Origin: a virus
Taxonomy: Duplodnaviria > Heunggongvirae > Uroviricota > Caudoviricetes
DNA: 52,691 bases
IMG/VR virus record: IMGVR_UViG_2872174743_000006
Span: 1-52,691 of that record
Strand: one strand, 5' to 3'
Numbering within the stretch: the first letter of the stretch is position 1; each line of letters opens with the position of its first letter. Shown here one piece after another: positions 515 through 36,190 of the stretch. The position numbers were made by a program, and so were the translations under genes. The notes beneath the pieces are model-generated. The model searched no databases and was not told where the DNA came from. It saw only the letters and a program-made list of their open reading frames with translations.

Positions 515-763
515 ATGCGTGTTGAGATCTGTATCGCTAAAGAAAAAATCACTAAAATGCCAAACGGTGCTGTGGATGCGTTAAAGGAAGAATTAACCCG
601 ACGCATCAGTAAACGTTATGACGATGTAGAGGTGATCGTAAAAGCCACCAGCAACGATGGCCTTTCTGTTACGCGCACCGCCGATAAAGATTCAGCTAAA
701 ACTTTTGTTCAGGAGACTCTGAAAGATACCTGGAAGTCTGCTGACGAGTGGTTTTTTCACTAA
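515..763 (+). CDS. DinI-like family protein
   Basis: 82-aa ORF ([11 protein letters not shown]...SADEWFFH) with the same length and motif pattern as DinI (MRIEVTIAK...WESADDWF). Confidence 0.6.
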
Positions 764-1079: not shown

Positions 1080-1625
1080 ATGAATATTAGTGAACTTAAA
1101 AAGTGTATACACTATGAAGTAATAGGTTGTAAACGCCCTTTCTCCTGGCGAAAAGCAATTGTTCGCGCAATAAAACACAGAAGATCACGTTATTTATTTT
1201 GGTGGCGCATAGCAAAATATCTTTTTGATAAAGGCGGATACCGGCGAAAGATTGCAGGAAAAATAGAACGCTTCATTCTTGATAAATACAATGTAACCGT
1301 TCCCTTAACTGTAAATATTGGTAAAGGGTTCGACATATCTTATCTCAATGGCGTTGTTATCGGTCACAAAGTTACAATAGGTGAAAATTGTTCAATTAAG
1401 CCTGGGGTAACTATTGGACTTCGCGGTGAATTTAATGATATGGATATTGTCATAGGAAATAATGTAACCATTGGCTGTAACGCCACCATCCTTGGTGGCA
1501 AAGTGCATATAGGGAATAATGTAAAAATAGGAGCTCATGCATTGGTACTGCATGACATTCCTGATGACTCCACATTCATTACCAAATTTCACTCTGAAAT
1601 TATTTATAATTCATCTCACACATAA
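1080..1625 (+). CDS. hexapeptide-repeat (left-handed beta-helix) acetyltransferase
   Basis: 181-aa ORF with tandem [LIV]-G-x-x-x-x hexapeptide repeats (VIGHKVTIGENCSIKPGVTIG...); visibly AT-rich relative to neighbours. Confidence 0.6.
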   Translation: MNISELKKCIHYEVIGCKRPFSWRKAIVRAIKHRRSRYLFWWRIAKYLFDKGGYRRKIAGKIERFILDKYNVTVPLTVNIGKGFDISYLNGVVIGHKVTIGENCSIKPGVTIGLRGEFNDMDIVIGNNVTIGCNATILGGKVHIGNNVKIGAHALVLHDIPDDSTFITKFHSEIIYNSSHT

Positions 1626-1635
1626 TTCCGTTTAA

Positions 1636-1893
1636 TCACAGCTCAGGCCATACGATATCCGGGGCTGTATTTATATCAATCCGACTCACTAATACCCGGT
1701 ATTTATTCCATGCCTCCAGCAACGATCTTTCTTCCTCCGTTGCGATTTCCAGATCTACAGCATCCTGCAGTGGCGCAATATACTCACTGAATTCCTGGAT
1801 ATAGAACTGTGTGGTGACGGTCTTCCAGCCATTCGGCTCCTGCTGTATCGAAGCATACCAGGCTATTTCAATATCGCTATGCTGCGGCAGCAT
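1636..1893 (-). pseudogene. tail fibre assembly protein (Tfa) C-terminal fragment
   Basis: 85-aa ORF ending ...[33 protein letters not shown], typical lambdoid Tfa C-terminus; no N-terminal half upstream. Confidence 0.55.
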
Positions 1894-2117
1894 TTAACCC
1901 CTTGTAATTCATCGCCATAATTGATTTAATTCACAAATAAAACCATAACATGGTGAAATCAATGAAAAAAAACACAGATGATGGGGCTAAAATTTACACA
2001 CCACTTACCCTAAAGCTTTATGACTGGTGGGTTTTGGGAGTATCAAATCGGCTTGCATGGGGGGTGATGCTGCCAACTTACTGATTTAGTGTATGATGGT
2101 GTTTTTGAGGTGCTCCA

Positions 2118-2393
2118 GTGGCTTCTGTTTCTATCAGCTGTCCCTCCTGTTCAGCTACTGACGGGGTGGTGCGTAACGGCAAAAGCACTGCCGGACATCA
2201 GCGCTATCTCTGCTCTCACTGCCGTAAAACATGGCAACTGCAGTTCACTTACACCGCTTCTCAACCCGGTACGCACCAGAAAATTATTGATATGGCCATG
2301 AATGGCGTTGGATGCCGGGCAACTGCACGCATTATGGGCGTTAGCCTCAACACGATTTTACGTCACTTAAAAAACTCAGGCCGCAGTCGGTAA
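2118..2393 (+). CDS. insA: IS1 InsA
   Basis: 91-aa [46 protein letters not shown]... Confidence 0.85.
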
Positions 2394-2437
2394 CCTCGCG
2401 CATACAGCCGGGCAGTGACGTCATCGTCTGCGCGGAA

Positions 2438-2815
2438 ATGGACGAACAGTGGGGATACGTCGGGGCTAAATCGCGCCAGCGCTGGCTGTTTTACGCGTAT
2501 GACAGGCTCCGGAAGACGGTTGTTGCGCACGTATTCGGTGAACGCACTATGGCGACGCTGGGGCGTCTTATGAGCTTGCTGTCACCCTTTGACGTGGTGA
2601 TATGGATGACGGATGGCTGGCCACTGTATGAATCCCGCCTGAAGGGAAAGCTGCACGTAATCAGCAAGCGATATACGCAGCGAATTGAGCGGCATAACCT
2701 GAATCTGAGGCAGCACCTGGCACGGCTGGGACGGAAGTCGCTGTCGTTCTCAAAATCGGTGGAGCTGCATGACAAAGTCATCGGGCATTATCTGAACATA
2801 AAACACTATCAATAA
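2438..2815 (+). CDS. insB: IS1 InsB frame (expressed as InsAB' by frameshift)
   Basis: [25 protein letters not shown]... downstream of insA in the -1 frame. Confidence 0.8.
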
Positions 2816-3261
2816 GTTGGAGTCATTACCTGCATGGGGATGTCCTACAAAGGAACACCTTCTTCCACACTTTCTGGAACATGTAGGTAACAACCATCTG
2901 GATATTGGTGTTGGAACTGGGTTTTACCTTACTCACGTACCTGAGAGTAGTCTGATATCTTTAATGGATTTGAACGAAGCTAGTCTGAACGCGGCATCTA
3001 CAAGGGCTGGGGAATCAAAAATTAAACATAAAATTAGCCATGATGTTTTTGAACCTTATCCCGCGGCGTTACATGGTCAATTTGATTCCATTTCCATGTT
3101 TTACCTTCTTCACTGCCTGCCTGGAAATATATCTACAAAAAGCTGTGTAATACGCAATGCGGCGCAGGCGTAAGCGTACAGCCTGAACCGTCTGGTCAGA
3201 ATCTGACGAATTAGACAAAGTGGTGTCCACCAAATAAGTAGTGGGAACCAAAGTGTCAGAT

Positions 3262-3641
3262 ATGCAGAAAAATGTGAATCCCGGCAGGCGAAAAGGCTGC
3301 CCTAATTATCCTCCCGAATTTAAACAGCAGCTCGTTGCTGCCTCCTGTGAACCCGGGATATCCATCTCAAAACTTGCTCTGAAAATGGCATTAACGCCAA
3401 TCTGTTGTTCAAATGGCGACAACAATGGCGCGAGGGAAAGCTGCTATTACCTTCTTCAGAGAGCCCCCAGCTACTTCCTGTGACTCTCGATGCAGCTGCC
3501 GAACAGCCAGAATCGCTCGCAGAGGATCCGGAAACCCTCAGTATCAGCTGTGAGGTAACGTTCCGGCACGGGACGCTCCGCTTCAATGGCAATGTCAGCG
3601 AAAAGCTCCTGACTCTGCTGATACAGGAACTGAAGCGATGA
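3262..3641 (+). pseudogene. IS66-family tnpA with apparent frameshift
   Basis: N-terminal part MQKNVNPGRRKGCPNYPPEFKQQLVAASCEPGISISKLAL and C-terminal part FKWRQQWREGKLLLP... are in different frames (ORFs 3241-3483 and 3405-3641). Confidence 0.55.
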
Positions 3642-3985
3642 TCCCGTTACCTTCCGGGACCAAAATTTGGCTGGTTGCCGGTATCACCGATATGAGAAAT
3701 GGCTTCAACGGCCTGGCGGCAAAGGTGCAGACGACGCTGAAAGACGCTCCGATGTCAGGTCACGTTTTTATCTTCCGTGGGCGTAATGGCAGTCAGGTAA
3801 AGCTCCTCTGGTCTACCGGCGATGGACTGTGTCTGCTGACCAAACGGCTGGAGCGCGGCCGCTTCGCCTGGCCGTCAGCCCGGGATGGCAAAGTGTTCCT
3901 CACACCGGCACAGCTGGCGATGCTCCTTGAAAGTATCGACTGGCGGCAGCCTAAAAGACTGCTTACGTCCCTGACTATGTTGTAA
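3638..3985 (+). CDS. IS66-family TnpB
   Basis: 115-aa ORF MIPLPSGTKIWLVAGITDMRNGFNGLAAKVQ... Confidence 0.8.
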   Translation: MIPLPSGTKIWLVAGITDMRNGFNGLAAKVQTTLKDAPMSGHVFIFRGRNGSQVKLLWSTGDGLCLLTKRLERGRFAWPSARDGKVFLTPAQLAMLLESIDWRQPKRLLTSLTML

Positions 3986-4033
3986 GCCTCTTTATCCTGG
4001 TCGACGCTGAATGAGCCTGGTAATATACCCGGT

Positions 4034-5572
4034 ATGAGCAGCTCACTTCCTGACGATATCAATGCACTGAAACGTCTCCTTGCCGAACAGGAGGCGCTGA
4101 ACCGTGCCCTGCTGGAAAAGCTGAACGAGCGTGAACGCGAAATAGACCATCTGCAGGCACAGCTGGATAAGCTGCGCCGGATGAACTTCGGCAGCCGCTC
4201 CGAAAAAGTCTCCCGTCGTATCGCACAGATGGAAGCTGACCTGAAGGCACTTCAGAAAGAAAGTGATACCCTTACCGGTCGGGTTGACGACCCGGCCGTG
4301 CAGCGCCCGCTGCGTCAAACCCGCACCCGCAAACCGTTCCCCGAATCACTCCCCCGCGATGAAAAACGGCTGCTGCCGGCAGCGTCATGCTGCCCGGAAT
4401 GTGGAGGCTCACTGAGCTATCCGGGTGAGGATGCCGCCGAACAGCTGGAGTTGATGCGCAGCGTCTTCCGGGTTATCCGGACTGTACGTGAAAAGCATGC
4501 CTGTACTCAGTGCGATGCCATCGTGCAGGCCCCCGCGCCTTCACGGCCCATCGAGCGGGGTATCGCAGGACCGGGGCTGCTGGCCCGCGTGCTGATCTCA
4601 AAGTATGCAGAGCACACCCCGCTGTACCGCCAGTCTGAAATGTACGGCCGCCAGGGCGTGGAGCTGAGTCGTTCACTGCTGTCGGGCTGGGTGGATGCAT
4701 GCTGCCGGCTACTGTCACCGCTGGAAGAAGCGCTTCAGGACTATGTGCTGACTGACGGTAAGCTCCATGCTGATGACACGCCTGTCCCGGTGCTGTTGCC
4801 AGGCAATAAGAAAACGAAGACCGGGCGGTTATGGACCTACGTTCGTGACGACCGTAACGCCGGGTCAACGCTGGCGCCGGCGGTGTGGTTCGCTTACAGC
4901 CCGGACAGAAAAGGCATCCATCCGCAGACCCATCTTGCGGGGTTCAGTGGTGTACTGCAGGCGGATGCATACGCCGGGTTCAACGAGCTGTACCGGGATG
5001 GCCGGATAACGGAAGCCGCCTGTTGGGCTCACGCCCGCCGTAAAATCCACGATGTGCACGTTCGCACCCCGTCAGCCCTGACGGAGGAAGCGCTGAAACG
5101 GATCGGCGAACTGTACGCCATCGAGGCAGAGATAAGGGGAATGACGGCGGAGCAGCGCCTTGCCGAACGTCAGTTGAAAACGAAACCGCTGCTGAAATCC
5201 CTGGAAAGCTGGCTGCGTGAAAAGATGAAAACCCTGTCGCGACACTCAGAACTGGCGAAAGCGTTCGCATACGCCCTGAACCAGTGGCCGGCGCTGACGT
5301 ACTATGCAGATGATGGCTGGGCTGAGGCGGACAATAACATCGCTGAAAATGCGTTGCGGATGGTCAGTCTGGGCCGCAAAAACTACCTGTTCTTCGGTTC
5401 GGATCATGGAGGAGAGCGGGGAGCGCTGCTGTACAGCCTGATCGGGACGTGCAAACTGAACGGAGTGGAGCCAGAAAGCTACCTCCGCTATGTACTTGAC
5501 GTCATAGCCGACTGGCCGATAAACCGGGTCGGCGAACTGCTCCCCTGGCGCGTAGCACTGCCGACTGAATAA
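4034..5572 (+). CDS. IS66-family transposase TnpC
   Basis: 512-aa ORF with N-terminal coiled coil, Cys cluster (CPECG...CTQCD) and conserved C-terminal region. Confidence 0.85.
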
Positions 5573-5609
5573 CACATCCCCGTCAATACGGTTCTTGCTG
5601 CACGCTTAC

Positions 5610-5861
5610 AACTGTTACGACAACGCTCCGATGGAAAGCTTCTGGGGAACGCTGAAAAATGAGAGCCTGAGCCACTATCGTTTTAATAACCGGGATGAAG
5701 CCATCTCAGTAATACGGGAATACATTGAGATTTTCTACAATCGTCAGCGTCGTCACTCTCGTCTGGGGAATATCTCCCCGGCAGCCTTCAGGGAAAAATA
5801 TCATCAGATGGCTGCTTAAAAAAAGAACAAATGGTAGTGTCCGCTATTGCCAGTACACCTC
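5610..5861 (+). mobile_element. IS600 (IS3 family) 3' fragment: orfB C-terminus plus right terminal repeat
   Basis: Encodes ...CYDNAPMESFWGTLKNESLSHYRFNNRDEAISVIREYIEIFYNRQRRHSRLGNISPAAFREKYHQMAA then an IR-like end at about 5861; directly abuts the IS66 element. Confidence 0.6.
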
Positions 5862-6136
5862 ATGTGGTTTGGGTTCGTAGTCGCTCTGAACTTGCGTTTC
5901 TGCTTACAGCGTAGCCTTAGCTCCTTACGAAGACGTGCCAGTCGGTCACGACCAACGATGATGCCATTCTCTGCCAGCTCCGTCTGGAGCCGCCGGGTTC
6001 CATATGTTTCGCGAGTGCGGATATGTGCCACCTTAATCTCCAGTTTTAGCCGCTCATCACTTTGTTTTCTGTCTGAGGGTTCATGCTGTACCCAGTTGTA
6101 ATAACCGCTCCTGGATACACCAAATACCTGACACAT
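5862..6136 (-). pseudogene. IS600 orfB, N-terminal part only
   Basis: MCQVFGVSRSGYYNWVQHEPSDRKQSDERLKLEIKVAHIRTRETYGTRRLQTELAENGII... then diverges after ...TTNPNH. Confidence 0.6.
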
Positions 6137-6171
6137 CGCTTCAATGGGAAATTGTTGTCGCCATTGTTCGA

Positions 6172-6474
6172 TTAACGCGTATTTTTCAGCGACTCCTGTG
6201 CAAAATACGCTGTTGCTTTTTTTAATATATCTCGCTCAAGGCGAGCTTCATTTAACGCCTTACGCAGTTGCAGAATTTCAGATTCCAGTTCAGCCACCGT
6301 GCGGGAACCAGGAGTACCGAGCCCTTTTCTGGCGGCGGTAACCCATTGTCCTAAAGTGCCTTCAGGAAGGGATAATCGGGAAGCGCCTTCACTGATCGAA
6401 AGTTGATTTTCAAGAACCGTTCTGACAGCTTCGGCTTTGAACTCTTTAGAGTAACGTTGGTTTTTTCTGCTCAT
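6172..6474 (-). CDS. IS600 OrfA
   Basis: 100-aa ORF MSRKNQRYSKEFKAEAVRTVLENQLSISEGASRLSLPEGTLGQWV..., IS3-family OrfA. Confidence 0.8.
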   Translation of the reverse strand: MSRKNQRYSKEFKAEAVRTVLENQLSISEGASRLSLPEGTLGQWVTAARKGLGTPGSRTVAELESEILQLRKALNEARLERDILKKATAYFAQESLKNTR

Positions 6475-6538
6475 TATTAGCTCCTTCTGATGCCATTCTA
6501 TTTCAGGAAGGAGTGTCCGTTAAACTCAGGCTACCTCA

Positions 6539-6587
6539 GTTCAACGGTTTTTGGATTACCTGCGACAATGTTTTTTAAATGCTGCAT
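6539..6587 (-). pseudogene. tfa: tail fibre assembly gene N-terminal remnant (about 16 codons) truncated by IS600
   Basis: ATG at 6585-6587 (minus), 5 bp after the stf stop, reads MQHLKNIVAGNPKT (lambdoid Tfa N-terminus) then runs into the IS600 end. Confidence 0.5.
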
Positions 6588-6589
6588 GA

Positions 6590-9406
6590 TTATACCTGCG
6601 ATACGTTATACCATGTTCCGTTAATTAACTTTTGTATTGGTCTGAATACTGCCGGATCATCACCATCGACTTCACCGATAATACCAAGCCCCGTGATTAC
6701 ATGGCCTGATTTTTCATACATCACGCCTTTCTTCATGGTCTGAACAACTCGTGTGCCAAGTCTGACATCTCTCACATAGCGGGAATCAAAGTTACCGTAA
6801 TCCGAGGGATTAACACGTCCCGTAATATTTATGGTTTTATTACTTTGAATGCTTCCGGAGACAAAGCGCATAACATGGACGTTATTAGCATAAACATCCA
6901 GATTACCATCGCCATTTTGTTTAAAGCCCGTATCATTATCACCCAATACAATCGAATTACCGCCAAGAGCACTGGCTGTTCCGATACCCAGTGCACCATT
7001 CAGTTGACCACCAGATAACGGCAGTGCACCAACATCTCCTGCTGAAGGTTTTCTGGTGGTGGTGTAAAATTCGGACCAGTCGGCTTCAAAACCATAACCA
7101 TCACGGGCTGAACGATAAAAAATACCGCCATTTTTATAATTAATCCGAAACTGAGCTGCAGGACAACTTCCTTCTCCCATATAAAAATGAATAATTAACG
7201 TTGATGCACCTCTAATAGTTGCGTTATAGGCTCCGCTACTCCAGTTCCATCCAACTGCTTTATCATTCGCAACGGTGCTTCCTGTTTTCCCTAAGGCAAA
7301 CGCACCAACATGACTTGCTTTTAATGTGATATCGGAGGAACCATCAAAAGCCACATTGCTTATTTTCCTGGCAGTTTTTAATTTTGCAGCTGTAGAAGCA
7401 TTGCCGGATAGTTCACCAGAAAGGCCACCGCTGAATGTTTGTCGATTAGTCCAGGTATTCGCTGTACTGAGTAACGGTATTTTCTCCCCGCTTGTGCCGA
7501 GTTCTCGTAAACCGAGGTATTCGATAACGGCAGCAACAGTCGATTTCGCAAGAATATCCCGCCCGACTTTTGTCAGGGTTGCCAGGCTGGCGACATCATT
7601 CCCCGTAAAATACGGAAACTTGTCTGCCGCAGTAGTAAGCCCGGCCAGCGCCGTCAGGGTGGCATCTTTCGGTTGCTTACCCGCAAGCGCGTTAGTCATG
7701 GTGGTCGCAACATTCGGGTCGTTTCCCAGCGCCGCCGCTAACTCGTTCAGCGTATTCAGTGCGTCAGGTGACGAATCTACAAGGGCGGCAATCGCAGCCA
7801 TAACGAAAGCCGTGCTTGCGATTTGGGTATTATTCGTTCCCTGTCGCGCAGTTGGTGTTGTTGGCGTTCCGGTCAGTGCAGGACTATTTAAGGGCGCTTT
7901 CTTGTTCGTTTCACCCATTACCGCCTTAACCGCTTTTGGCGTTGCCGCCAGTGACTCGGAAGTGCTGTTGGTCGCACTGCTGAGCTGTACTATCCCCTTT
8001 TTCGTCGTGCTCGCATCCTCCAGCGCCACGGCGGATGCAATATCCTCTGCCCGTTTTGCTGCTGTCTCGGCGCGCGTTGCCGCGGATTCCGCCGTACTTT
8101 TGCTCTGAGCTGCCGCCGTCGCACTACCAGCTGCCTCTGATGCTTTCATTGTTGCTGTCGTGGCACTACCTTTCGCTGCTGACGCTTGTCTGGTCGCCTC
8201 ATCTTTTGAAGCAGACGCAGATGATGCCGATGACGCCGCTGAACTGGCTGACGATGCGGCTGCCGCCTTAGAGGAAGCAGCATTGTCTGCTGAAGTCTTT
8301 GCATTTGTTTCAGAGGTTTTTGCTGCAGAAGCAGACCTCGCTGCTGCAGTGGCTTGCTCAGTGGCTTTGCCAGCCTTCGTTGTGGCTGTTGAAGCGGATG
8401 ATGCGGCGCTTTCTGCCGATTTTCCGGCGGCGCTAGCACTGGCTGAGGCCTGCCCGGCACTTGTTGACGCGGCACTGGCAGACGACGCGGCCGCTGTTTT
8501 TGAGCCTGCCGCAGCTGAGGCGCTCTGTCCCGCTGCTGTTTCAGAAGACTTAGCGTTCGTCTCGGACGTTTTTGCCGCCTTCGCGGAATTTCCTGCCACC
8601 GTTGCCGAGGAAGCTGCACTACTGGCACTTGATGATGCATTCGTTTCTGAAGATTTCGCTGCCTCTTTTGAAGCCGCCGCACCCCGTGCCGAGGTGGCAG
8701 CTTCTGACGCCTTCGTGGTCGCTGTGGATGCAGAAGTGGCTGCCGATTTTTGTGATGCTGCGGCATTCGTTTCTGACGTTTTCGCGGCACTGGCGCTGGT
8801 AGCTGCCGCGCTTTTTGATGACTCTGCAGCAGCAGCACTTTTTGCTGCTTCACGGGCCTTTGTCGATGCCGTTCCTGCGCTGGAAGACGCTGACTGAGCC
8901 GACGACGCGGCCTGTCCGGCTGACGTGCTTGCGGCACGTGCTGAGGCTGCAGCATCGGTTGCATGAGTTGCCGCCTCGCTGGCTGATGCACTGGCATCGC
9001 TGGCTGATTTTTTCGCGGCTGCCGTATTCTGTGCAACCGCGGAGGCGTTACGTGACACCTCTTCCACCATCTGCTCAAAGCGGCGCAGTGCCTCCGGTCG
9101 GACATCATCCTCCGTCATGGCACCGAGAAAATCATTTAGCGTACCTGGTCTGGAACCTTCATAGACGGTAATGGTCCCGGCATGTGAAGGCGGAAAACCT
9201 TCAACCAGCAGGGTGACGCTGTACTGACCATGCTCAACATCCATGCTGTAACGTCCGGCTTCATCCGGATTTTCAGAGGCCACCGTGTTCACCACCACCG
9301 TGCTGCTGGTTCGTCTGGCCTTCAGCACAATGGTGCAGTTCTGTACTGGTTTTCCTGTGCCATCTTTAAGCACGCCAGAAATTTTTACTGTCATACTTTC
9401 CACCAA
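6590..9406 (-). CDS. stf: side tail fibre protein
   Basis: 938-aa ORF: conserved N-terminal domain (MTVKISGVLKDGTGKPVQNCTI...), long Ala/Ser-rich repeat region, globular C-terminal domain; follows lom as in lambda. Confidence 0.8.
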   Translation of the reverse strand: MVESMTVKISGVLKDGTGKPVQNCTIVLKARRTSSTVVVNTVASENPDEAGRYSMDVEHGQYSVTLLVEGFPPSHAGTITVYEGSRPGTLNDFLGAMTEDDVRPEALRRFEQMVEEVSRNASAVAQNTAAAKKSASDASASASEAATHATDAAASARAASTSAGQAASSAQSASSSAGTASTKAREAAKSAAAAESSKSAAATSASAAKTSETNAAASQKSAATSASTATTKASEAATSARGAAASKEAAKSSETNASSSASSAASSATVAGNSAKAAKTSETNAKSSETAAGQSASAAAGSKTAAASSASAASTSAGQASASASAAGKSAESAASSASTATTKAGKATEQATAAARSASAAKTSETNAKTSADNAASSKAAAASSASSAASSASSASASKDEATRQASAAKGSATTATMKASEAAGSATAAAQSKSTAESAATRAETAAKRAEDIASAVALEDASTTKKGIVQLSSATNSTSESLAATPKAVKAVMGETNKKAPLNSPALTGTPTTPTARQGTNNTQIASTAFVMAAIAALVDSSPDALNTLNELAAALGNDPNVATTMTNALAGKQPKDATLTALAGLTTAADKFPYFTGNDVASLATLTKVGRDILAKSTVAAVIEYLGLRELGTSGEKIPLLSTANTWTNRQTFSGGLSGELSGNASTAAKLKTARKISNVAFDGSSDITLKASHVGAFALGKTGSTVANDKAVGWNWSSGAYNATIRGASTLIIHFYMGEGSCPAAQFRINYKNGGIFYRSARDGYGFEADWSEFYTTTRKPSAGDVGALPLSGGQLNGALGIGTASALGGNSIVLGDNDTGFKQNGDGNLDVYANNVHVMRFVSGSIQSNKTINITGRVNPSDYGNFDSRYVRDVRLGTRVVQTMKKGVMYEKSGHVITGLGIIGEVDGDDPAVFRPIQKLINGTWYNVSQV
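8000..9055. repeat. low-complexity Ala/Ser-rich coding repeats inside stf
   Basis: Protein motif AAKTSETNA three times plus related units; several frames on both strands are open across this stretch in the ORF track. Confidence 0.5.
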
Positions 9407-9544
9407 TAAAAAAAGCCCGCAGCAGTGACGCCACGGGCTTCAGGACAGTGTAACTTTACGTTTCCTCAAACGCAGTTCACCCCATAAGGTGGATGAACCT
9501 GCGTATCATAACAATATTTACAGAAGATAAATCGGCGTCTGTTG

Positions 9545-10144
9545 TCAGAAACGGTATCCGATACCAACAATAAATGCATCCGTTCGCCAGTCGCCACTAC
9601 CGGAACCTTCATAAGCAAGGTCAACGGCCACGGATTCGGTCGGGTTAAACTGCACGCCAGCCCCCCACGCCAGAGAGGTATTGCTGTGGCGACCGTCATC
9701 ACTTCCGGTCAGCACGTCGTGCGTTTTCCCCTTGTTGTCAGTTACGCGGAGATAATCCCCGGAGAAAGTCGACACACGGCTGTAAGCCACACCCGCCATC
9801 GCATACGCGCTGAACCATTCATTCACGCGTACAGACGGCCCCGCCATCACACTGAACCAGCGGTTACGCACGGAATCTTCATGCCAGCGGGTATCGCTGT
9901 AGCGCGTTTTTTGCTCATCCTCAGCATTGGCATAACTGAAGGACGTAATCAGCCCCAGCGCGTCCGTAAACTCATAACGGTATTTCACGTTAATCCCGTT
10001 CAGATCATCACTACCGGGAACGTTCGTCGAGGCATGGAGATACCCCGCGCTCAGCGTGGACTGATGTTCTGCTGCACTCGCTGGCGTAGCAGCGGCGACC
10101 TGCCAGACTACTGCGGACAAAATAACAGCACATAATTTACGCAT
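9545..10144 (-). CDS. lom: Lom/Ail-family outer membrane protein
   Basis: 199-aa ORF with signal peptide, ending ...FIVGIGYRF, located between J and stf. Confidence 0.85.
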   Translation of the reverse strand: MRKLCAVILSAVVWQVAAATPASAAEHQSTLSAGYLHASTNVPGSDDLNGINVKYRYEFTDALGLITSFSYANAEDEQKTRYSDTRWHEDSVRNRWFSVMAGPSVRVNEWFSAYAMAGVAYSRVSTFSGDYLRVTDNKGKTHDVLTGSDDGRHSNTSLAWGAGVQFNPTESVAVDLAYEGSGSGDWRTDAFIVGIGYRF

Positions 10145-10211
10145 AATTACCTCTCGCTTTTCTGCAATAAAAAAGGCGCCATTTCTGGCGCCCGTATCTG
10201 GGTTATAAAAT

Positions 10212-13200
10212 TCAGCTAATCGTGATGCCTGCAGTGGCTTTCTTCATCACCACAACCAGCAAATCGCTGATACTTGCTGTGGGATACCAGTTATTTACCA
10301 GCCATGCTGACACCGAAAACTCCAGTGTCATGTGACCGTGACCGGCAGGCATATCAATAACACCACTGTAAATCAGCGTATTATCCAGCGCGGTACGGTT
10401 ATAAATTTCAGCACCGTTTTTCCGCACTATCAGACGGCATGAGGAGTAAATATCAGTATGCTCTTTCTCATGTTTAGCGCCGCTGAATGCCACCGCCGGA
10501 ATAACAATCTGCCGGTCAAACGGCTGATCGTCATAAACCCTGACGGTAATGGTTCCTGATGGCCACCGCTCCGGTGCACGGGAGTCCCGGGGGAAAGCTT
10601 TGCCCACTGTTTTAACGAGATCGCCTTCAATCTGGTTCGCGGACAATTTTCCCAGAACCCGACAGTTCTCGTTAATCGTGACGTTGTTGAGCGTCCCGGA
10701 GTTCGCATTCACGTTACCGCTGATATCGGCATTTTTCGCCGTCAGCCGCCCGTCCGGTGTCAGGGAAAATGCCGGAGGATTACCGCCGCTGGTAATGGTG
10801 GGAGCCGTCAGATATTTCAGGAACACTTCATTCATAAATATCTGATCGCCCTGACCAACAAACATCGGCTTTGTGTTGCCATTCGCAGGATTAATCATCG
10901 CAATCCTGTCTGCCGCCAGCAGCACCTGACTCTGCATTCCTGCTGGCGTATTCTCAATACCGGCATCGATACCCGCAATATAAAGGCGTCCGTCCTGCAT
11001 CTGCTGCAGTTTCACGGCCCACATGCTGTTCAGGTTATTATTTGTATCAACCTGAACTTTCTGTATCTGCTGGATTGCCGCACTCTGATTTTCCAGTTTT
11101 TTATTGACGGTCTGCGTGATTTCATTGCTGACATTCGTAATGGACGTCCTGATTTCAGCCAGGTCCGGCGCAAGCTGACCGTTATCAATCTGCGTCCACA
11201 GCTCCTGGGCCAGATGTGTTTTCCCGATTTCTCCTTTGAAGAAATCCAGGTAACCTTCCGCATCATCGCTCGCCCGACCGACAGCCTCCACGAATGCCGA
11301 TTTGCCAACAGTATTCACACTGCGGATATAAAAATAATAATCATGGCCCGGTTTGATATTGATACTGGCAGCTATCCAGTACAGCGCCGAGCCAAGATAG
11401 CGGGCTGCGGTTTCAACCTGCCTGATATCCGCAATCCGCTTTTCCGAGAACCAGAACTCAAACTGTACCGTCGGGTAATAAACGGCAAGATGCGGCGTGG
11501 CGGTTATCTGAAAATAGCCCGGCGTCAGTTCAATGGTGGCGGGTTTTGCTGGCGCGTTAATCCGGAAGGTGGTGGTGGCCGGTTCGCCCTGCTGGCCATA
11601 ACTGTTAATTGCCCTGACTGTCAGGGTGTATTCCCCGAGCGGCAGACCACTGAAACGATGCTCTGTATCCGCAGTGATAGCGGTGGTCACCAGACGGCTG
11701 TCTTCTCCGCTTCCGCTGGTCAGTCGCAGACTGAAGCGCCCCCCCTTCACCACCCGCGGCGTGTCCCATTTCGCCTGTGCCAGATACTGGCCGTCAGCTG
11801 CGCTCACCTCCACCGTCAGGTGCTGCACTGCCGGTGGGATGACGCTGTTCAGGGAGCCTGACTGCGGCTCAAAGCGGGCACCGTTATCCACGATGGCTTC
11901 TTTTTCCGGTACGTGCTGCACCGCCGTGATGGCAAAGGTGCCGTCCGTGTTTTCCCGGACGGAGACACAGCGGAACAGGCGACGGCGCAGTGACGGCAGG
12001 GAGAGTCCCCACACCCCGTATGTCTCCACACCATCAGGCAGGGTACTGACCTGTATCCGGTCCGGCGCGGGGTGTGCGGTGATGTCCACACTCACCGGCT
12101 TACCGCTGCCGTTAATCAGGTTCACCGCCGATGTACCTGTCTCCGGCAGGGTAACCTCACGGTCCAGCGTCAGGGTGCGGGTGGCAGCATCAATGGACAG
12201 GACACGTCCGCCGGTCATAGTCCCGGCATAGTCGTTATCACAGATTTCAATAATGTCACCCGGTGTGTGACGCAGCCCCTGTGACCCGAGCGTGAAGTCC
12301 ACCGTCTGCGTTTCCAGCAGTCCGGTCTTTATCACCCACAGACCTGCACGGTGAGCCTGACCGCGGCAGGTACAGCCAAACGCATCCATCTTCAGCAGGT
12401 TGCGTCCGTAGCGCAGTATGGCTTCCGGGTCTTCCACCAGTTCCGTGGAGGTCTGCCAGCCGTTCTGCGGGTCGGTGTAATTCACCTCCACCGCCGTGTG
12501 CCGGTCCTTCAGGGCACTGAAGCTGTAGCGGAATCCCACGCCGTTATCATCCACCACCACATCGCTGTTGGTGTACGGCCACACCACATCCGACGGGCGG
12601 TCCTGAACGAACGTCAGCGTCTGACCGTTCCATACCGGCATACAGCGCATCGCAGAGCAGAAATCACTGAGAACGTCCCACGCCTTACGCTGTTGTGCCA
12701 GGTACGCATTAAAGGTCATCCGCGGCTCGGTCCCCCCGAAACCATCCGGGACCGTCTGGTCGCAGTACTGCCCGATGGCATACAGCGCCCACTTGTCCAC
12801 ATCCGCCGCCCCCAGACGTTTTCCCATGCCGTAGCGCGGGTGAGTCAGCATGTCCCACAGGCACCAGGCCGGGTTGTTGCTGTATGCCGGTTTCAGACTG
12901 CCGTCCCAGATACCACTGTACGTGCGTTTTTCCGGGTCATAGTTTGACGGCACCTGGATGATGCGACCGCGGATATGGTAGTTCACCGTCATCTGCTGGC
13001 CGCCGAACTGCTCCGCATCCACCTGCAGCCCCACAATGGCCGTGTTCGGGTAGCACTGTTTCACATCGATGATTTCGGTGTATGACGACCACAGCGTCTT
13101 ATTCTGCAGCTGGTCCGTGGTGCTGTCCGCCGTCTCCCTGACCATCCGGATGTTAAAGGGCCGGGGAGGCAGATTATCCAGAATCACCGAGGCCAGGAAC

Positions 13201-13685
13201 TGTGAGGTGGTCTTGCCGTTAATGGTGACGTCCTTTTCCGTCACCCAGCGGCCATTACGCTGTAACTGAATCAGAATCCGGACAGAGGAAGGATTACGGT
13301 CGCCCTTTGACGTGGTCTGCACCAGTGACTGCACCCCGAAGGTAACCCGCAGGCGGTCAATGTTCGCGGACGTAATGGTGCGCGTCACCGGTTTTGCCTT
13401 CGTCACTTCCACGCCCAGTCCGGTTTCAGAGCCGGAGGACTCAAAGCCTTCCGGTGGTGTCTGCTCCTGCTCCCCGGCGCGCCAGACCGCCGTCACACCG
13501 TGTATCACGGGATTGCCGTCCGTGTCCGTCAGTGGGGTTTTGTTCACCAGAATACTCTGCAGTCCCTTCACCGGACCTTCTATCGGTCCCTCACCAATCG
13601 CATCAATCACACTCATCATCTGCGTGGATTTGAGATTATCCTTCGCCTCACGAGGAGTGTGTGCCTTACCGCCACCTTTTCCCAT
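10212..13685 (-). CDS. J: host specificity / central tail fibre protein J
   Basis: 1157-aa ORF collinear with lambda J; follows I. Confidence 0.9.
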
Positions 13686-16387: not shown

Positions 16388-18957
16388 CCACCGCTCCCTG
16401 ATAACATACCGCCATCACGCAACTGCAGCCGGAGTTCATCCTGTGCCCCCTTGCGGGCCATCTCATACACCGCTTTCATCAGCTGCGGCCCTGCCCGCCC
16501 GTTGGGGCCGTCGTTCTGAATCACCACGTGATTGTTCTGATTAAAATTAATGCCTTCCGCCCGCCGCATCTGCGCCGGACTTCCGGCACCGCCGACATAA
16601 CCACCTTCCGCATAGCCCCGCATCAGGCGGTACAGATTGCCGACACCAATCCGGCTGGTCGCCTCCTTCGTGAAGACAAACTCCCCGCGATGAACAATCC
16701 CCGCAGGTTCATATTTACCCCCCGTCCCCGTAAATCCCCCGGTCGCGAAATGGAAGTTCGCCGCCGCAGCCTGAATGGCTGTACCGCCTGACGCGGATGC
16801 GCCGCCACCAACAGCCCCGCCAATGGCGCTGCCGATACTCCCGACTATCCCCACCATCGCCTGCTTCAGAAAAATCTCTGTCAGCATGGACAGCACAGAA
16901 CGGGTGAAACCACGCCAGTTCTGTTCGCTGCCGGTCAGCATCGCTGCCATATTCTGTACAATACCGTCAAAGGTCTGCGTGGCCGCGTTTTTAACCTGCG
17001 AAAAACTGTCCGTCGCACTTTCCGCCCACTCGCCCCAGCCGGACTTCATCCCGGCCATCCAGCTTCCACGAAGCTGCTCCTCCGCAGACCAGGTGTTCTT
17101 CAGTGCAGATGTGGCCTTCGCCAGCGCAGCCGGATTATCACCGTACACCTCACGAAGGCGCTGCTCTTCCGACTCCCGCTGCGCCTGACGGTCGGTGAGT
17201 CCGCGTGCTTTTGCGCTGATTGCCGCCTGCTTCGCGCTCTGCTGCTGTTCAAACCGCGCCGCCTGCTGTGCCAGCTCATTCAGCCGTTTCTGGTGTTCAA
17301 TCTTGTCGCCCAGCTCAGCCAGCTGGCGTTTGTACTCCAGCGTTTCTTTCTCATGGGCCAGCAGGGATTTTTCCTGCTCAGATAACTGCCGTTTCGTGGC
17401 GGCCTCTTTCAGGACCACATACTGATTTTCCGCTTCCCATAAATCCCGGCGCTGCTGGCTGATTTTCTCATTCACACCGCTGTGTTTTTCCAGCGTCCTG
17501 AGCTCGGTTTCAAGCGCCAGCATGGCTGCATGCGCCCGGTCTTCCTGGCGCTCACCGGCAGACACCTTCACACCTGACGGCTTTTTCAGCGTCGATTCAT
17601 AATCCTTTTTTGCCGACGCCATCAGCGTGTTGTAATCCGCCTGCAGGATTTTTCCGTCTTTCAGGGCCTTATTCAGCTCTTTCTGACGGGCGGTATATTT
17701 ATCCAGCGGCGTCTGCAGGCGCTCATACGCCTTCTGCGCCTCTCCGGTATACTTCAGCTGTGACGCCTCACGCTCAGCCCGGTCCCTTGCCGCCAGTTCA
17801 CCGGCTTTTTCCATATCCGACTGCAGCGTGGCCGCTGCCAGACCCAGACGGGCATTTTCCCGGTCATCCCATGCCCCCTGAAGGTTCGCACGAAAAGAGG
17901 AGGTCTTTCCCCGGCGCTGGCTCCGGCTCTGGTACCACTGCCATTTTTTATCCGCCTCATCAAATGCCTTCTGCGCACTGGCGAGCATATCCGCTGAGGA
18001 TTCAGGACGACCGATATCCAGAATGGCATCCCACATCGATTTGAATGCCTTCCCTGTTTTATCCGCCCAGGTCTCCAGTGTTCCCATGTTTTCTTTCAGG
18101 CGACGGGTCTGCTCATCAAAGCCTTTCGTGGCGATATCGTTCGCCGCCTGCAATGCCCCGGCCTCGTCTCCGGAACGCTGCAGCTGTGCAACATACGCAA
18201 TCTGCTCTGCCGTCACGTTACGGAACTGGCGCGCCATCGCCATCAGTCCCGACGTCGGGTCAGTGGTCAGCTTCCCGAAGGCTTCAGCGACTTTATCCAC
18301 CTCCACACCGGATGCAGACGCAAAACGCGCGACACTCTGGTTGATGGCATCAAACTGTTCACCACCACGCACACCGGCATTCACCAGGGCTGCCAGTGAC
18401 TCTCTCGCCTGGTTAAACGTCAGCCCTGCTGCCTGCCCGGCTCTTGAGAGAGTCAGCATACGATCGGCAGTCAGTCCGGACTGATTACCGGAAAGAACCA
18501 GGGTTTTATTAAACGCTGAAAGCGTGGAATCTCCCTGGTACCAGGCGTACACCAGCGCACCTGTCGCCACCGCCAGCGAGGTGACTCCGACCATCGGCAG
18601 GGTGATCGCACCGGCGAGCCCCCTGAACATGGGGATCATCCCGCCGAAGGAGTCCTTCACCTGACCGCCCTGTTGCAGCAGGATCAGCCAGGGATTCTGA
18701 CCACCGGCAAGCTGCGTGGCGATATCCGTAAACTGTGCGGGCAGGGTTCGCATGGCCGCTTTATACTGCCCGACGGAAATCCCGGCTTTTTGTGCAGCCA
18801 GCGCCTGGCGGCTCAGGCCCTGTTCAACAGCACTGGCGGTTTTTCTGGCGTCGGTATCCAGACCTGAAAAATGACGCCTTACCCGGCTCATCTGCTCATC
18901 GAAACGGACAGCATCCAGACTCAGGTCAATAACAAGATCACCAACCGGCTGGGACAT
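16384..18957 (-). CDS. H: tail tape measure protein H
   Basis: 857-aa ORF, coiled-coil rich with C-terminal Gly-rich region, at the lambda H position. Confidence 0.85.
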   Translation of the reverse strand: MSQPVGDLVIDLSLDAVRFDEQMSRVRRHFSGLDTDARKTASAVEQGLSRQALAAQKAGISVGQYKAAMRTLPAQFTDIATQLAGGQNPWLILLQQGGQVKDSFGGMIPMFRGLAGAITLPMVGVTSLAVATGALVYAWYQGDSTLSAFNKTLVLSGNQSGLTADRMLTLSRAGQAAGLTFNQARESLAALVNAGVRGGEQFDAINQSVARFASASGVEVDKVAEAFGKLTTDPTSGLMAMARQFRNVTAEQIAYVAQLQRSGDEAGALQAANDIATKGFDEQTRRLKENMGTLETWADKTGKAFKSMWDAILDIGRPESSADMLASAQKAFDEADKKWQWYQSRSQRRGKTSSFRANLQGAWDDRENARLGLAAATLQSDMEKAGELAARDRAEREASQLKYTGEAQKAYERLQTPLDKYTARQKELNKALKDGKILQADYNTLMASAKKDYESTLKKPSGVKVSAGERQEDRAHAAMLALETELRTLEKHSGVNEKISQQRRDLWEAENQYVVLKEAATKRQLSEQEKSLLAHEKETLEYKRQLAELGDKIEHQKRLNELAQQAARFEQQQSAKQAAISAKARGLTDRQAQRESEEQRLREVYGDNPAALAKATSALKNTWSAEEQLRGSWMAGMKSGWGEWAESATDSFSQVKNAATQTFDGIVQNMAAMLTGSEQNWRGFTRSVLSMLTEIFLKQAMVGIVGSIGSAIGGAVGGGASASGGTAIQAAAANFHFATGGFTGTGGKYEPAGIVHRGEFVFTKEATSRIGVGNLYRLMRGYAEGGYVGGAGSPAQMRRAEGINFNQNNHVVIQNDGPNGRAGPQLMKAVYEMARKGAQDELRLQLRDGGMLSGSGG

Positions 18958-31508: not shown

Positions 31509-31711
31509 GGATATATTAAATATTCAGCCGCTGTCCCTGGCCCACTAAATACGCACTTTAAGATAAGTCAGCCCCGGATGAAGCCAGTAAGCCGGCACTT
31601 TTTTAAAGGGTGGAGTATTAAAATCACGAAGAAGAGCCTCCCGCACAATTGCATCCGGTAATGCTGCCAACTTACTGATTTAGTGTATGATGGTGATTTT
31701 AAGGTGCTTGC

Positions 31712-31987
31712 GTGGCTTCCATTTCCATCAGATGTCCTTCCTGCTCCGCTACTGAAGGCGTGGTGCGTAACGGCAAAAGCACTGCCGGACATCAGCGCTA
31801 TCTCTGCTCTCATTGCCGTAAAACATGGCAACTACAGTTCACTTACACCGCCTCTCAGCCCGGTACGCACCAGAAAATCATTGATATGGCCATGAATGGC
31901 GTCGGATGTCGCGCCAGTGCACGCATTATGGGCGTTGGCCTCAACACGGTTTTACGTCACTTAAAAAACTCAGGCCGCAGTCGGTAA
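31712..31987 (+). CDS. insA: IS1 InsA
   Basis: 91-aa [42 protein letters not shown]... Confidence 0.85.
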
Positions 31988-32031
31988 CCTCGCGCATACA
32001 ACCGGGCAGTGATGTGATTGTCTGCGCTGAA

Positions 32032-32409
32032 ATGGACGAACAGTGGGGCTACGTCGGTGCTAAATCACGTCAGCGCTGGCTGTTTTACGCGTATGACAGG
32101 ATACGGAGGACGGTTGTGGCGCACGTCTTCGGTGAACGCACTCTGGCCACACTGGAGCGTCTTCTGAGCCTGCTGTCGGCCTTTGAGGTCGTGGTATGGA
32201 TGACGGATGGCTGGCCGCTGTATGAATCACGCCTGAAGGGAAAGCTGCACGTTATCAGCAAGCGTTACACTCAGCGCATTGAGCGACATAATCTGAATCT
32301 GAGACAACATCTGGCAAGGCTGGGACGGAAGTCACTGTCGTTCTCAAAATCGGTGGAGCTGCATGACAAGGTCATCGGGCATTATCTGAACATAAAACAC
32401 TATCAGTAA
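32032..32409 (+). CDS. insB: IS1 InsB frame
   Basis: [22 protein letters not shown]...; Met chosen inside ORF 31906-32409. Confidence 0.8.
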
Positions 32410-33131
32410 GTTGGAGTCATTACCATTGCATCCTTATCAGCACCACTGGCCAGCGCTTCAATCTCAGCAGCTATCTGCAGATATCCCATGCAACGACCAA
32501 TGCACTTCATCAGCCCCTGCTTTTTATTGTTCTTCAGGTAATCAATGGCAAATTCAATGAGCGCCTCACTATGCTGGTGCGATGGCGGTGTTAATTTCCC
32601 ATTTTCTGAGATGGTTATTTTCCCGCCATCTCCGTATACAACAAAGGATGGCCGGTTACACTCCCATTCCTGATCTTTATCAGGTGCAGACGCAATAAAA
32701 TAACGTTTATTTCCTTCCTCTCCGGCACTTTTAACCGTAATGGAGTACTCAGACTGCAGACAAGACGCCTCTTTTTCTGACCGCAGTGTTGACGGCGGCA
32801 TCTTCAGAGAACAAGTAATTATTCCCGGTAGTTTTCCTCTGTAGGTTATCAACACATCCTGCGCCTCTAAAATGATGGGGCGCTTTTCCTGCAACGGTTC
32901 GTTCCCTTCACATAACCCGGCAGCAACATCCATGAAAAACTGCTTCGCCTGCTTTTTCGCCTCCGCTTCGTAAAACTCCAGCTTGGCACCTTCAGTACGG
33001 TCAAGACTAATCGCCACATATGGCAACAACAGTGACGGATACCCACCAATTTCCAGTGCCACAGTAACAGTAATCTTATCCGGGTAATTATTTATCCCTT
33101 TAACAACCAGTTCGTATTTTTTCTTCATCAC
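32403..33131 (-). pseudogene. unknown lysis-cassette gene (native about 270 aa) with 3' end displaced by IS1
   Basis: Last 7 codons lie inside IS1; joining across the target duplication restores an in-frame tail ...ADKDAIVREALLRDFNTPPFKKVPAYWLHPGLTYLKVRI ending near 31553; no recognisable family. Confidence 0.45.
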
Positions 33132-33498: not shown

Positions 33499-35121
33499 TT
33501 ATGATGATGCCGGTGCATTTATCTCCAGCACCAGACTTTCTATCTCAACGCCATACGCTGCATTTTTGGTAATATCCGTCAGCGTCAGTGCATTTAGTCC
33601 CACTGCCAGACTGTCTTTTATGGCCTGGAATGCCGGGCCAGCCACTCCATTCAGTTTCGGAGTAACCGTGGCACTGCCGGCGGTGAACACCAGCTCCAGC
33701 GTCTGCCAGTCGTTACTGTAATTCCCGAACTCGCCCAACTTTGTGTTTCCGGCTTTCTTGTGATGCATCAGATTCCGTTTGCCGTCTGTGGTCTGGGTGA
33801 AGAACGACATCAGGAACGGGTTACCAGTCCCGGTCATCGCCACGACGTCAGGTAACGCTACATCGGTATACAGATAAATTCCCAGACCGAACTGATTGTT
33901 GGTCAGTGCGCCTGACAGTCGAAACTTACAGCTCAGTCTGCCACCCCGTGTCAGCAGGGAGACTGCGTCATCCACCGGGCGCGTCAGGGACCAGGCTTTA
34001 TTGCTCTGCTTGGCGATCTTAAATACACCACCCGACAACTGAATTCCGCCGTCCTTAATGGTCCAGCCCTGCGCAGCAGCCTCTCCGGCTGTCGGCAGCA
34101 GGGAGATTGTGCGAACGGACGTATCTGCAGACGGACCCGATGGCGTGTCGCCGCCGGGCGAGGGTTTGATTTCCGGTGCCTTACCACTGATGAAGGCTGA
34201 GGTGCGCCCGGCTGCGTTCAGAATAGCGGTTGCCATACGATCGGGAATAATGCCACGACGCGCCCATGAGCTGAAATTTGTCGGGCGATTTGATGATACC
34301 CAGTTTTTGTTCGTTCGGGATGCCGAACCGTAATAACCAGACCCGACAATATCAGGATCTTCTGACGGGTTGTTTGTCGGTGTATTAACTCCGCTACCAT
34401 CGGTCATAAAGGGAACAAAATAAATCTGCTGGGATTCTTTACCTTTATATGCACCATATACCACTTCATATTGCGTACCGTGTTCTTGTTTCCACGCGTA
34501 TGTCGTGTCGCCACAAATCCAGGGGACTGTTGCCGGACTTCCACCGTGACACTGCGCCGCCAGCCCGGCAAGGTCAGCACGGAACTGCTGTACCATTGCA
34601 AGAAATGCTGCTGGCTGCTGGGCGTAACTGGCATTCGTCATATCGAATTCCCCCTGCATCCAGCATATCGCCAGCAAAACGTTTTTCGGGTTTTTCTGCA
34701 ATGCTGCCTTCGTGCGGAAAAGCAGATCCTGATATAACGGCTTACCCACTCCCCAGCGAGCCGAATCCTGACTGGCCCCCGTGGACTCGCTGAATGTCCC
34801 CTCCGTGCCCTGGGTGAATGCAGAACCACCACGGCAGCACGGAACCAGAAGAATACCGGCATTCGCCGGAATAAACGGCAACAATTTCTTCGCGATATGT
34901 AATCCCTGCCCCACGCATCCATACTGAGCTGCGCTGGCTTTCGGGTGTGAAAACTTACTCAAATCCTGAACATCATGCAGGCAGTGGTCCGCAGGAATAA
35001 TGTCATTGTAGTTACAGGACGCACCACCCGGCGTGACAGTGCTGCGACGCGCCAGCTGTTTAATACGCGGGTCCGGACGGTCATATGTCTCCGGCAGCGG
35101 AAGCCCTTCACCGTAAGCCAT
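33499..35121 (-). CDS. NanS-p-like sialate 9-O-acetylesterase (SASA domain)
   Basis: 540-aa ORF at the position this gene occupies downstream of the stx locus in Stx-phage backbones, preceded by a DUF1737 ORF. Confidence 0.65.
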   Translation of the reverse strand: MAYGEGLPLPETYDRPDPRIKQLARRSTVTPGGASCNYNDIIPADHCLHDVQDLSKFSHPKASAAQYGCVGQGLHIAKKLLPFIPANAGILLVPCCRGGSAFTQGTEGTFSESTGASQDSARWGVGKPLYQDLLFRTKAALQKNPKNVLLAICWMQGEFDMTNASYAQQPAAFLAMVQQFRADLAGLAAQCHGGSPATVPWICGDTTYAWKQEHGTQYEVVYGAYKGKESQQIYFVPFMTDGSGVNTPTNNPSEDPDIVGSGYYGSASRTNKNWVSSNRPTNFSSWARRGIIPDRMATAILNAAGRTSAFISGKAPEIKPSPGGDTPSGPSADTSVRTISLLPTAGEAAAQGWTIKDGGIQLSGGVFKIAKQSNKAWSLTRPVDDAVSLLTRGGRLSCKFRLSGALTNNQFGLGIYLYTDVALPDVVAMTGTGNPFLMSFFTQTTDGKRNLMHHKKAGNTKLGEFGNYSNDWQTLELVFTAGSATVTPKLNGVAGPAFQAIKDSLAVGLNALTLTDITKNAAYGVEIESLVLEINAPASS

Positions 35122-35154
35122 GGCATTGGACTGCCCGGCCAGGGCAACAACAAA

Positions 35155-35388
35155 TTAATACTCCGGGTTGCTGGTGGTGCTGATAACTGCGCCTTCTCCA
35201 TCCGACGGCTTCACCACCACAGGTGTGGTGACATCACCTTCCGCCGCAATGGCCTGCATCAGGGTATAAGGCGTGATGGCCACCGGACTGCCAAATGGCT
35301 GCCACCCCTCCTTCAGTTTTTGTGTCAGTCGCTCCGCAAGGTCTGACGGCGACGCCGCCCTGACCACGTCATAGTGTTTAAATGCCAT
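35155..35388 (-). CDS. DUF1737 small protein
   Basis: 77-aa ORF MAFKHYDVVRAASPSDLAERLTQKLKEGWQPFGSPV... directly upstream of the esterase. Confidence 0.55.
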   Translation of the reverse strand: MAFKHYDVVRAASPSDLAERLTQKLKEGWQPFGSPVAITPYTLMQAIAAEGDVTTPVVVKPSDGEGAVISTTSNPEY

Positions 35389-35850
35389 AAATCCTCCCGG
35401 CCTGGATAATATTGTGAGTAAAATGAGGAGCGGGCTGAAGTCCGGAAGTTACAGGACAATGGCAGAAGATAGACAACAGCCCGCAATATGAAAAAGGCCG
35501 CGCTATTGCGCAGAGTGATTACTGTCGGATATTATTCACCAGCTGAAATATTACTTCACGTTTTGTTGTTTATTCCTTGCCGCCCGCGTCTCCCAGCGCG
35601 GGCTTTTTTTGTCCATAAGAAAGCCCCTCCGGAGAGGGGCTGGAGAGTGGCGCTATGTGCCATTGCATGGTGCCGGGTGCCTCCCGGTGAGTTCAGTATC
35701 AGCACCTGAACCCGCACAGAAAGGATAAGGGTCGGTGACAAAACACCAGTTGCTGATTGCCCCTCCGCACAGGGGGATTCACCATGCCAGTTTCTTTTAA
35801 CAAACTCCCCGCAAACCAGACAACAGTCAACCGCCTGAATTGTGAGACAT

Positions 35851-35876
35851 TTAAAAAAAAGCCCGCAAAAGCGAGC
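35851..35876 (-). terminator. rho-independent terminator after the tRNA cluster
   Basis: Minus strand GGCTCGC TTTT GCGGGC followed by TTTTTTTT. Confidence 0.45.
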
Positions 35877-35889
35877 CAGGGAAAATAAG

Positions 35890-35966: not shown

Positions 35967-35979
35967 GCAGGATACAGAT

Positions 35980-36056: not shown

Positions 36057-36063
36057 GGTATGT

Positions 36064-36139: not shown

Positions 36140-36190
36140 CCGGGAGCAAAATAATAATGGTGCGTAATTAATTCTGCAATCTCATCCGTT

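Follow-up and report, generated by a model that had tools for sequence, protein, structure and literature searches.

The window, as we call the whole analysed stretch of 52,691 nucleotides (IMG/VR record IMGVR_UViG_2872174743_000006), contains nearly an entire lambdoid prophage of Shigella dysenteriae, and the host-range end of this prophage is very probably a fixed insertion sequence (IS) scar, left by successive IS insertions and a subsequent deletion anchored on the IS66-family element ISEc22. The tail fibre assembly gene (tfa) that should follow the side tail fibre gene (stf) is reduced here to its first codons. Next to them lie two oppositely oriented fragments of IS600 and a full-length ISEc22, which in turn abuts a truncated gene for a class I S-adenosylmethionine (SAM)-dependent methyltransferase. 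The window matches NCBI assembly GCA_900618175.1 (UYIT01000006.1) at 100% identity over its first 12 kb, and CP026834.1, likewise at 100%, over its first 14 kb. The placement in Shigella dysenteriae follows the names given with the products of the locus in the source records (Shigella dysenteriae, Shigella dysenteriae 225-75 and Shigella sp. FC3196). The coordinates of all features are collected in Table 1.

The first-pass annotation of this DNA had described stf as intact and tfa as cut to about 16 codons by a partial IS600, and both descriptions hold. The stf open reading frame (ORF) is full length, and its product, on which the Pfam domain phage_tail_N was matched, is 94% identical from end to end to the homologue of 941 amino acids (aa) in Escherichia coli AR_0086 (L019). 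The peptide MQHLKNIVAGNPKTVE encoded by the tfa remnant is the same as residues 1–16 of Tfa in E. coli NCTC86 (L001 5927–6460), where the protein is intact at 177 aa. Homology to the NCTC86 locus ends at window position 6539, and a tblastn search with the NCTC86 Tfa across the window recovered residues 1–16 and nothing further. A complete Tfa would appear as an ORF of about 175–195 aa directly after stf with a Caudo_TAP match, and only 16 codons of it are left. Fibres of the Stf type need a chaperone to fold, as exemplified by lambda Tfa and T4 gp38. By analogy, the Stf of this prophage would have lost its cognate folding chaperone, and the prophage would be unable to make its own side fibres; any particles would presumably lack them unless a compatible Tfa came from another prophage. 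An open stf beside IS debris should not be counted as a working fibre system. Laboratory lambda PaPa, which is devoid of side tail fibres due to a frameshift in stf, is comparable in that the side tail fibre function is lost and the J-dependent tail tip stays. The lesions differ, however: a point frameshift in stf in lambda PaPa, and the loss of the chaperone gene through IS elements, with stf open, in the window.

The junctions and the identities of the elements were read directly from alignments to reference copies. For IS600 the reference was the 1264-bp copy at L002:3254–4517, which has intact ends and a GTT target duplication on both sides. Fragment A matches its positions 676 to 1 with 99.4% identity (4 mismatches), and its left inverted repeat (IRL), beginning TGAGGTAGCCTGAG in direct reading, is joined precisely to tfa at GTT, which makes 6538/6539 a normal insertion junction, exactly where the first-pass annotation had put it. 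Fragment B is 100% identical to the reference and lies in the opposite orientation, with the tip of its right inverted repeat (IRR) at 5862 joined to position 676 of fragment A. A complete 1264-bp element with TGAGGT...ACCTCA repeats is not present, as positions 1–676 and 1012–1264 only are found, in opposite orientations. Each copy retains a single flank of its 3-bp duplication: GTT at 6539–6541, presumed to be the target triplet of copy 1, and TGT at 5863–5865 for copy 2. The earlier proposal that one IS600 is truncated by the terminal repeat of a second, inverted IS600 fragment is borne out, with the boundary moved by one base from 5861/5862 to 5862/5863. The joining of an IRR to position 676 is what an inverted second IS600 would make, and its insertion into the first has direct precedent, because nested inverted IS600-in-IS600 arrangements with a proper 3-bp duplication occur in three unrelated plasmids (S. 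sonnei IncI, L002; E. coli, L003; S. flexneri pINV, L031). These plasmid nests differ from the window in that their inner copy is complete (L002, L003) and that L002 keeps both outer halves with the GTT duplication, whereas in the window the IS600/IS600 junction lies at position 676 and the break at position 1012 is taken by ISEc22.

Position 1012 lies inside the palindrome GTAAC-T-GTTAC (IS600 positions 1010–1020), and the ISEc22 end meets IS600 at this same base (window 5609/5610, as the first-pass annotation stated). It is also the break in two independent IS600 nests, at 3253/3254 in L002, whose alleles are 100% identical, and at 2753/2754 in L031, whose alleles have diverged (95–96%). The repeated use of position 1012 as an insertion site is the only mildly new point of this analysis. 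That the palindrome is a true insertion hot spot recognised by unrelated transposases seems doubtful to us; if it were, IS600 would bear a built-in ‘landing pad’ favouring IS-in-IS nesting and self-inactivation during the Shigella IS expansion.

For ISEc22 the reference was the copy in E. coli 503025 (L007), which is 2441 bp long, ends in GTAAGCG...CGCTTAC and is flanked on both sides by the 8-bp duplication AATCAACC. The window element, aligned from 3170 and about 2.44 kb in length, has the same ends and the gene order tnpA-tnpB-tnpC, and PGAP labels its best E. coli matches as ISEc22. The assignment to ISEc8 made in the first-pass annotation was rejected, since identity to the PGAP-annotated ISEc8 in L008 is 88.4%, against 99.6% to ISEc22. 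The left boundary proposed for the element (3169/3170) agrees with the alignment, and so does the claim that it abuts IS600 without a target duplication: it lies between GCGCAGGC on the left and AACTGTTA on the right, without the 8-bp duplication expected of a simple insertion. The boundaries obtained by alignment thus leave ISEc22 without a duplication and tfa with 16 codons, and do not yield the canonical duplications and complete tfa that a different placement of the IS elements might have revealed. Unlike the intact tnpB and tnpC, tnpA is frameshifted by a 1-bp deletion at about position 210 of the element. Among the carriers of the scar, only the window, L005, L016 and L023 have this deletion; in the others TnpA is intact, at 126 aa, so the inactivation happened recently and serves as a marker of a sub-lineage.

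Comparison with intact stf-tfa loci of related prophages shows what is missing. The window aligns to NCTC86 with 95.7% identity over 1644–2062, 99.7% over 2831–3169 and 96.2% over 6539–12000, and L001 3750–6411 (2662 bp) is without counterpart. At its methyltransferase end this stretch comprises the final 75 codons of the SAM methyltransferase gene, a small ORF, a tfa fragment and an invertase remnant; at its stf end are an alternative fibre tip in inverted orientation, accompanied by a tfa of its own, and codons 17–177 of the tfa that follows stf. The truncated methyltransferase gene forms the left edge of the deletion, at 3169. Apart from the expected stf-internal repeat, the missing stretch was not found elsewhere in the window or in 10 kb of genome on either side. 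The loci of E. coli AR_0086 and R1 (L008) have the same general layout as NCTC86, with complete tfa genes. J, lom and stf are 96–98% identical between the window and NCTC86 and AR_0086, the first 16 tfa codons are the same in NCTC86, and all three loci carry the same methyltransferase gene and, downstream, the same old tfa fragment. In contrast to the window, the E. coli loci retain a complete 177-aa tfa, the inverted alternative fibre tip with its tfa and the invertase remnant. The ancestral order, still seen in E. coli, would then have been J, lom, stf, tfa, an invertible alternative fibre tip with tfa and a pin invertase remnant, small ORFs, the SAM methyltransferase gene, the old tfa fragment, the hexapeptide acetyltransferase gene and dinI.

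The scar is real, of single origin and fixed in a clade, because the same IS600 pieces and the same ISEc22 allele recur and drafts break at the IS600 edge. It was observed in at least 10 independent Shigella assemblies. Both IS600 pieces are present in L005, L009, L014–L018, L021 and L023, and L006 (736 bp) spans their junction; the ISEc22 allele, recognised by shared variants at positions 108, 358, 362, 578, ~1253 and ~1805, is found in L005, L009, L014–L018 and L023. Draft contigs with an identical Stf break 47–49 nt after stf, at the edge of IS600. Misassembly is common in IS-rich regions, and repeats collapsed or mis-joined at IS copies could in principle imitate such a structure, but independent projects have yielded complete genomes with identical junctions, and so have short draft contigs that run across the IS600/IS600 junction (L005, L006), which makes an assembly artefact a negligible prospect. 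Later decay is strain-specific; among other lesions, tnpC has gained frameshifts, stf of L015 carries an extra insertion of the IS3 family (Pfam rve), and stf of L011 is broken by an IS1. The ISEc22/IS600 junction itself is absent from the E. coli genomes and PLSDB plasmids searched. Full-coverage matches on O104:H4 pAA plasmids were rejected, as they consist of two pieces about 313 bp apart and represent a different structure. When the GTDB species representatives were scanned for exact copies of the IS600/IS600 junction, there were 0 matches; this is uninformative, as GTDB presumably merges Shigella into E. coli and represents both by one genome. A literature search on the accession numbers returned no papers.

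From these data we infer the following order of events. IS600 would have inserted first into tfa after codon 16, at GTT and in the same orientation as tfa, and a second, inverted IS600 would have entered the first at position 676/677. ISEc22 would then have come to occupy position 1012 of the second IS600, and the same or a second copy codon 147 of the methyltransferase gene. All DNA between the two ISEc22 points (the remainder of both IS600 copies, tfa codons 17–177, the invertible segment and, from the methyltransferase gene, its 3' third) would have been lost subsequently, leaving one ISEc22 with flanks from different target sites, most likely through homologous recombination between two directly repeated ISEc22 copies. 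IS1 would have entered the methyltransferase gene independently, making a normal 9-bp duplication, and the 1-bp deletion in tnpA would have followed later, in some strains only.

The serial insertions and IS-associated deletion of the first-pass annotation thus stand in outline, although the ‘IS-adjacent deletion’ that it named is one of two mechanisms. Two precise ISEc22 ends on unrelated targets result either from recombination between two copies or from an intramolecular, end-anchored deletion, and the window sequence is compatible with both and does not separate them. Under the second mechanism a single ISEc22 at one site would attack another site about 3–5 kb away on the same molecule and delete the DNA between, keeping one old junction and making one new, with no need for a second copy. 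This would account for one full-length element with two unrelated flanks. To our knowledge, however, no case of adjacent deletion by an IS66-family element is documented. A strain that bears on the choice is L014 (CP045784.1), in which, at 16976–17373, the methyltransferase piece equivalent to window 2831–3169 is replaced by 7 bp (CACGGTT) and the first 390 bp of another IS1 variant. The left end of the same ISEc22 allele is joined there to the interior of IS1 (~position 390), and the right junction is unchanged. The resident IS1 of L014 is a hybrid, with all 26 variant sites falling between window positions 2554 and 2812. This structure is evidence of either homologous recombination between IS copies at this locus or repeated ISEc22-anchored events. 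A new left flank with a constant right junction is what repeated end-anchored events would give, but the hybrid IS1 and the 7 bp of foreign DNA point to homologous exchange with another locus. Variants within ISEc22 were also checked for signs of a recombinant element; one allele is present in all strains, and the check was hence uninformative. We favour recombination between two ISEc22 copies, because deletion between homologous IS copies is a documented general feature of Shigella genomes (PMC7373316) and because of the hybrid IS1 in L014; the one-step deletion is a credible, if somewhat less probable, route.

Several points weigh against the order of events proposed here. IS600 fragments A (1–676) and B (1012–1264) share no positions, so that two separate IS600 copies are not proven. 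Together with the lost positions 677–1011 they would make exactly one element, as expected if a single IS600 had been present, with its 3' part (677–1264) inverted in place by an aberrant intramolecular event that set the IRR against position 676. We consider this unlikely, as inverted IS600 nests with a proper duplication are seen directly in the three plasmids mentioned above, and we know of no route to internal inversion in the copy-out/paste-in transposition of the IS3 family. Furthermore, the genome was readable in the window and its 10-kb flanks, and the missing DNA may lie farther off. In that case nothing would have been deleted, and an inversion or translocation between IS copies would have relocated the segment between tfa and the methyltransferase gene within the chromosome; the reciprocal product of an inversion at ISEc22 would have the left flank GGTAACTGTTA or the right flank GCGCAGGC+CTTAACTG. 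Shigella genomes are heavily rearranged by IS recombination (PMC8072062, PMC7373316), and in L011 the same prophage breaks off at the IS1 in stf and continues into unrelated genes of the chromosome. The segment is nevertheless absent from the 52.7-kb window and its 10-kb flanks, and the flanks of the scar stand in ancestral order and orientation, which fits a deletion better than an inversion; relocation strikes us as even more improbable than a single inverted IS600. Finally, no intermediate state was found. Look-ups of the exact Lom and Stf proteins in the searched genome collections returned only genomes with the scar, drafts ending at the IS600 edge or genomes whose fibre cassette differs (L010, L013). 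A search of 5,426 complete E. coli genomes for three synthetic parental junctions (IS600 IRR with GTT and the rest of tfa; the right end of ISEc22 with GCGCAGGC and the rest of the methyltransferase gene; IS600 to position 1019 with the left end of ISEc22) gave no match.

A second piece of tfa lies beyond the methyltransferase gene, and the first-pass annotation had counted it as part of the scar. The match of this 85-codon ORF to Caudo_TAP is real, but its reading as the missing C-terminus of the broken tfa is rejected: blastp against the lost NCTC86 Tfa gave no significant similarity (E=7.4), and E. coli loci with an intact tfa (L001, L008, L019) have the fragment too, annotated there as an incomplete tfa. 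Considered as a substitute chaperone, it comes from a different tfa lineage, is shorter, is devoid of the N-terminal domain and carries a pseudogene annotation in E. coli. Collinearity with L001 and L019, which have an intact tfa and no IS in the interval, extends over 1644–2062, where both the fragment and the first part of the methyltransferase gene lie; the match to L008 begins at 1694, and the IS of that locus is an unrelated ISEc8 beside stf only. The truncation of the fragment therefore predates the IS events, and the fragment is an older mosaic relic rather than their product. Its closer relative is a 190-aa Tfa of other Shigella prophages, to whose C-terminus in L010 it shows 72% aa identity and to whose gene its last 135 nt are 98% identical. 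L010 and L013 have this Tfa intact; its gene adjoins the same acetyltransferase gene and the chromosomal site is also the same, and the region 12064–15137 of L010/L013 belongs to a sister prophage with a different 3' half of stf and the intact 190-aa tfa. DNA homology between the window and these loci breaks at 1770, within the fragment, and at 8082, within stf, which points to an earlier exchange of the host-range cassette in its entirety.

The IS1 in the methyltransferase gene and the truncation of that gene by ISEc22 were both absent from the first-pass annotation. IS1 is flanked by a perfect 9-bp target duplication, TGCATGGGG, at 2054–2062 and 2831–2839, as expected of this element. The two BLAST segments on its sides overlap by 9 bp on L001, where the uninterrupted target occurs once, and Zn_ribbon_InsA and DDE_Tnp_IS1 were matched by Pfam on the called IS1 products. 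After removal of IS1 and one copy of the duplication, the methyltransferase pieces are collinear with L001 3307–3749, and the joined translation matches the L001 protein. Two cargo (‘moron’) genes are present past the tail fibre genes, of which the acetyltransferase gene is intact and the methyltransferase gene has been inactivated twice, by IS1 and by ISEc22.

The phenomenon described here is standard IS-driven prophage decay in Shigella and as such already known biology. Hawkey et al. 2020 (PMC7373316) listed IS1 and IS600 among five IS expanded in all Shigella, and reported interrupted genes and inter-IS deletions or rearrangements fixed within lineages, as found in this locus. The present locus is not described in that study; it differs in combining three IS types within 4.5 kb and in a deletion marked by ISEc22, an IS66-family element that is none of the five expanded IS. 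The locus has little importance beyond annotation, but it is a clean and well-bounded case of stacked IS and an IS-anchored deletion erasing a phage host-range module. For curation, the IS66-family element should be named ISEc22 and not ISEc8, the additional IS1 should be recorded, and the 85-codon tfa ORF should be treated as an old relic and not as the other half of the broken gene.

Table 1. Features of the scar and of the surrounding prophage, in order of window position.
Feature	Position	Strand	Description
dinI	515–763		
Hexapeptide acetyltransferase gene	1080–1625		181-aa hexapeptide-repeat product, intact
C-terminal part of a different tfa	1636–1893	-	85-codon ORF; Pfam Caudo_TAP, E=6e-22, profile positions 75–128 of 131
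Class I SAM-dependent methyltransferase gene (prophage cargo)	1950–3169	+	split by IS1; cut by ISEc22 after codon 147 of 222
IS1	2063–2830	+	768 bp, insA and insB; simple insertion
ISEc22 (IS66 family), full length	3170–5609	+	ends GTAAGCG...CGCTTAC; 99.6% to reference positions 1–2441
ISEc22 tnpB	3638–3985		115 aa, intact
ISEc22 tnpC	4034–5572		512 aa, intact
IS600 fragment B	5610–5862	+	element positions 1012–1264; 3' end of orfB and IRR
IS600 fragment A	5863–6538	-	element positions 1–676; IRL, intact orfA (6172–6474), 5' part of orfB
5' remnant of cognate tfa	6539–6587	-	16 codons and 1 nt, encoding MQHLKNIVAGNPKTVE
stf, side tail fibre gene	6590–9406	-	intact ORF; 934 aa from ATG at 9394 or 938 aa from TTG at 9406
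lom	9545–10144		
J	10212–13685		
Second IS1	31657–32424		beside lysis genes; only 91% identical to the IS1 at 2063–2830
SASA/DUF6645 esterase gene	33499–35121		540 aa, resembles NanS-p
77-aa ORF	35155–35388		
Three tRNA genes	35892–36141		Met-CAT, Arg-TCG, Arg-TCT
DNA methylase gene	36191–37240		
IS3-family element, possibly IS2	37893–39166		ORFs of 136 aa and 301 aa; sits where the late-gene regulator is expected
Further IS3-family element	47451–48950		279-aa rve ORF; next to cI-like repressor gene (46363–47094)
Integrase gene	51405 to window end		

Beyond J, the prophage continues with tail, head and terminase genes, then lysis genes and then the replication/immunity region, up to the integrase gene. 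It carries at least 5 further IS insertions or fragments, and because of the additional copies at 31657–32424, at ~38–39 kb and at 47.5–49 kb, the prophage as a whole is probably defective. Its late region (33499–37240) has a layout like that of Shiga toxin (Stx) phages; the window was checked for stx genes and none was present. The tRNA genes of this region lie only about 770 bp from the esterase gene.

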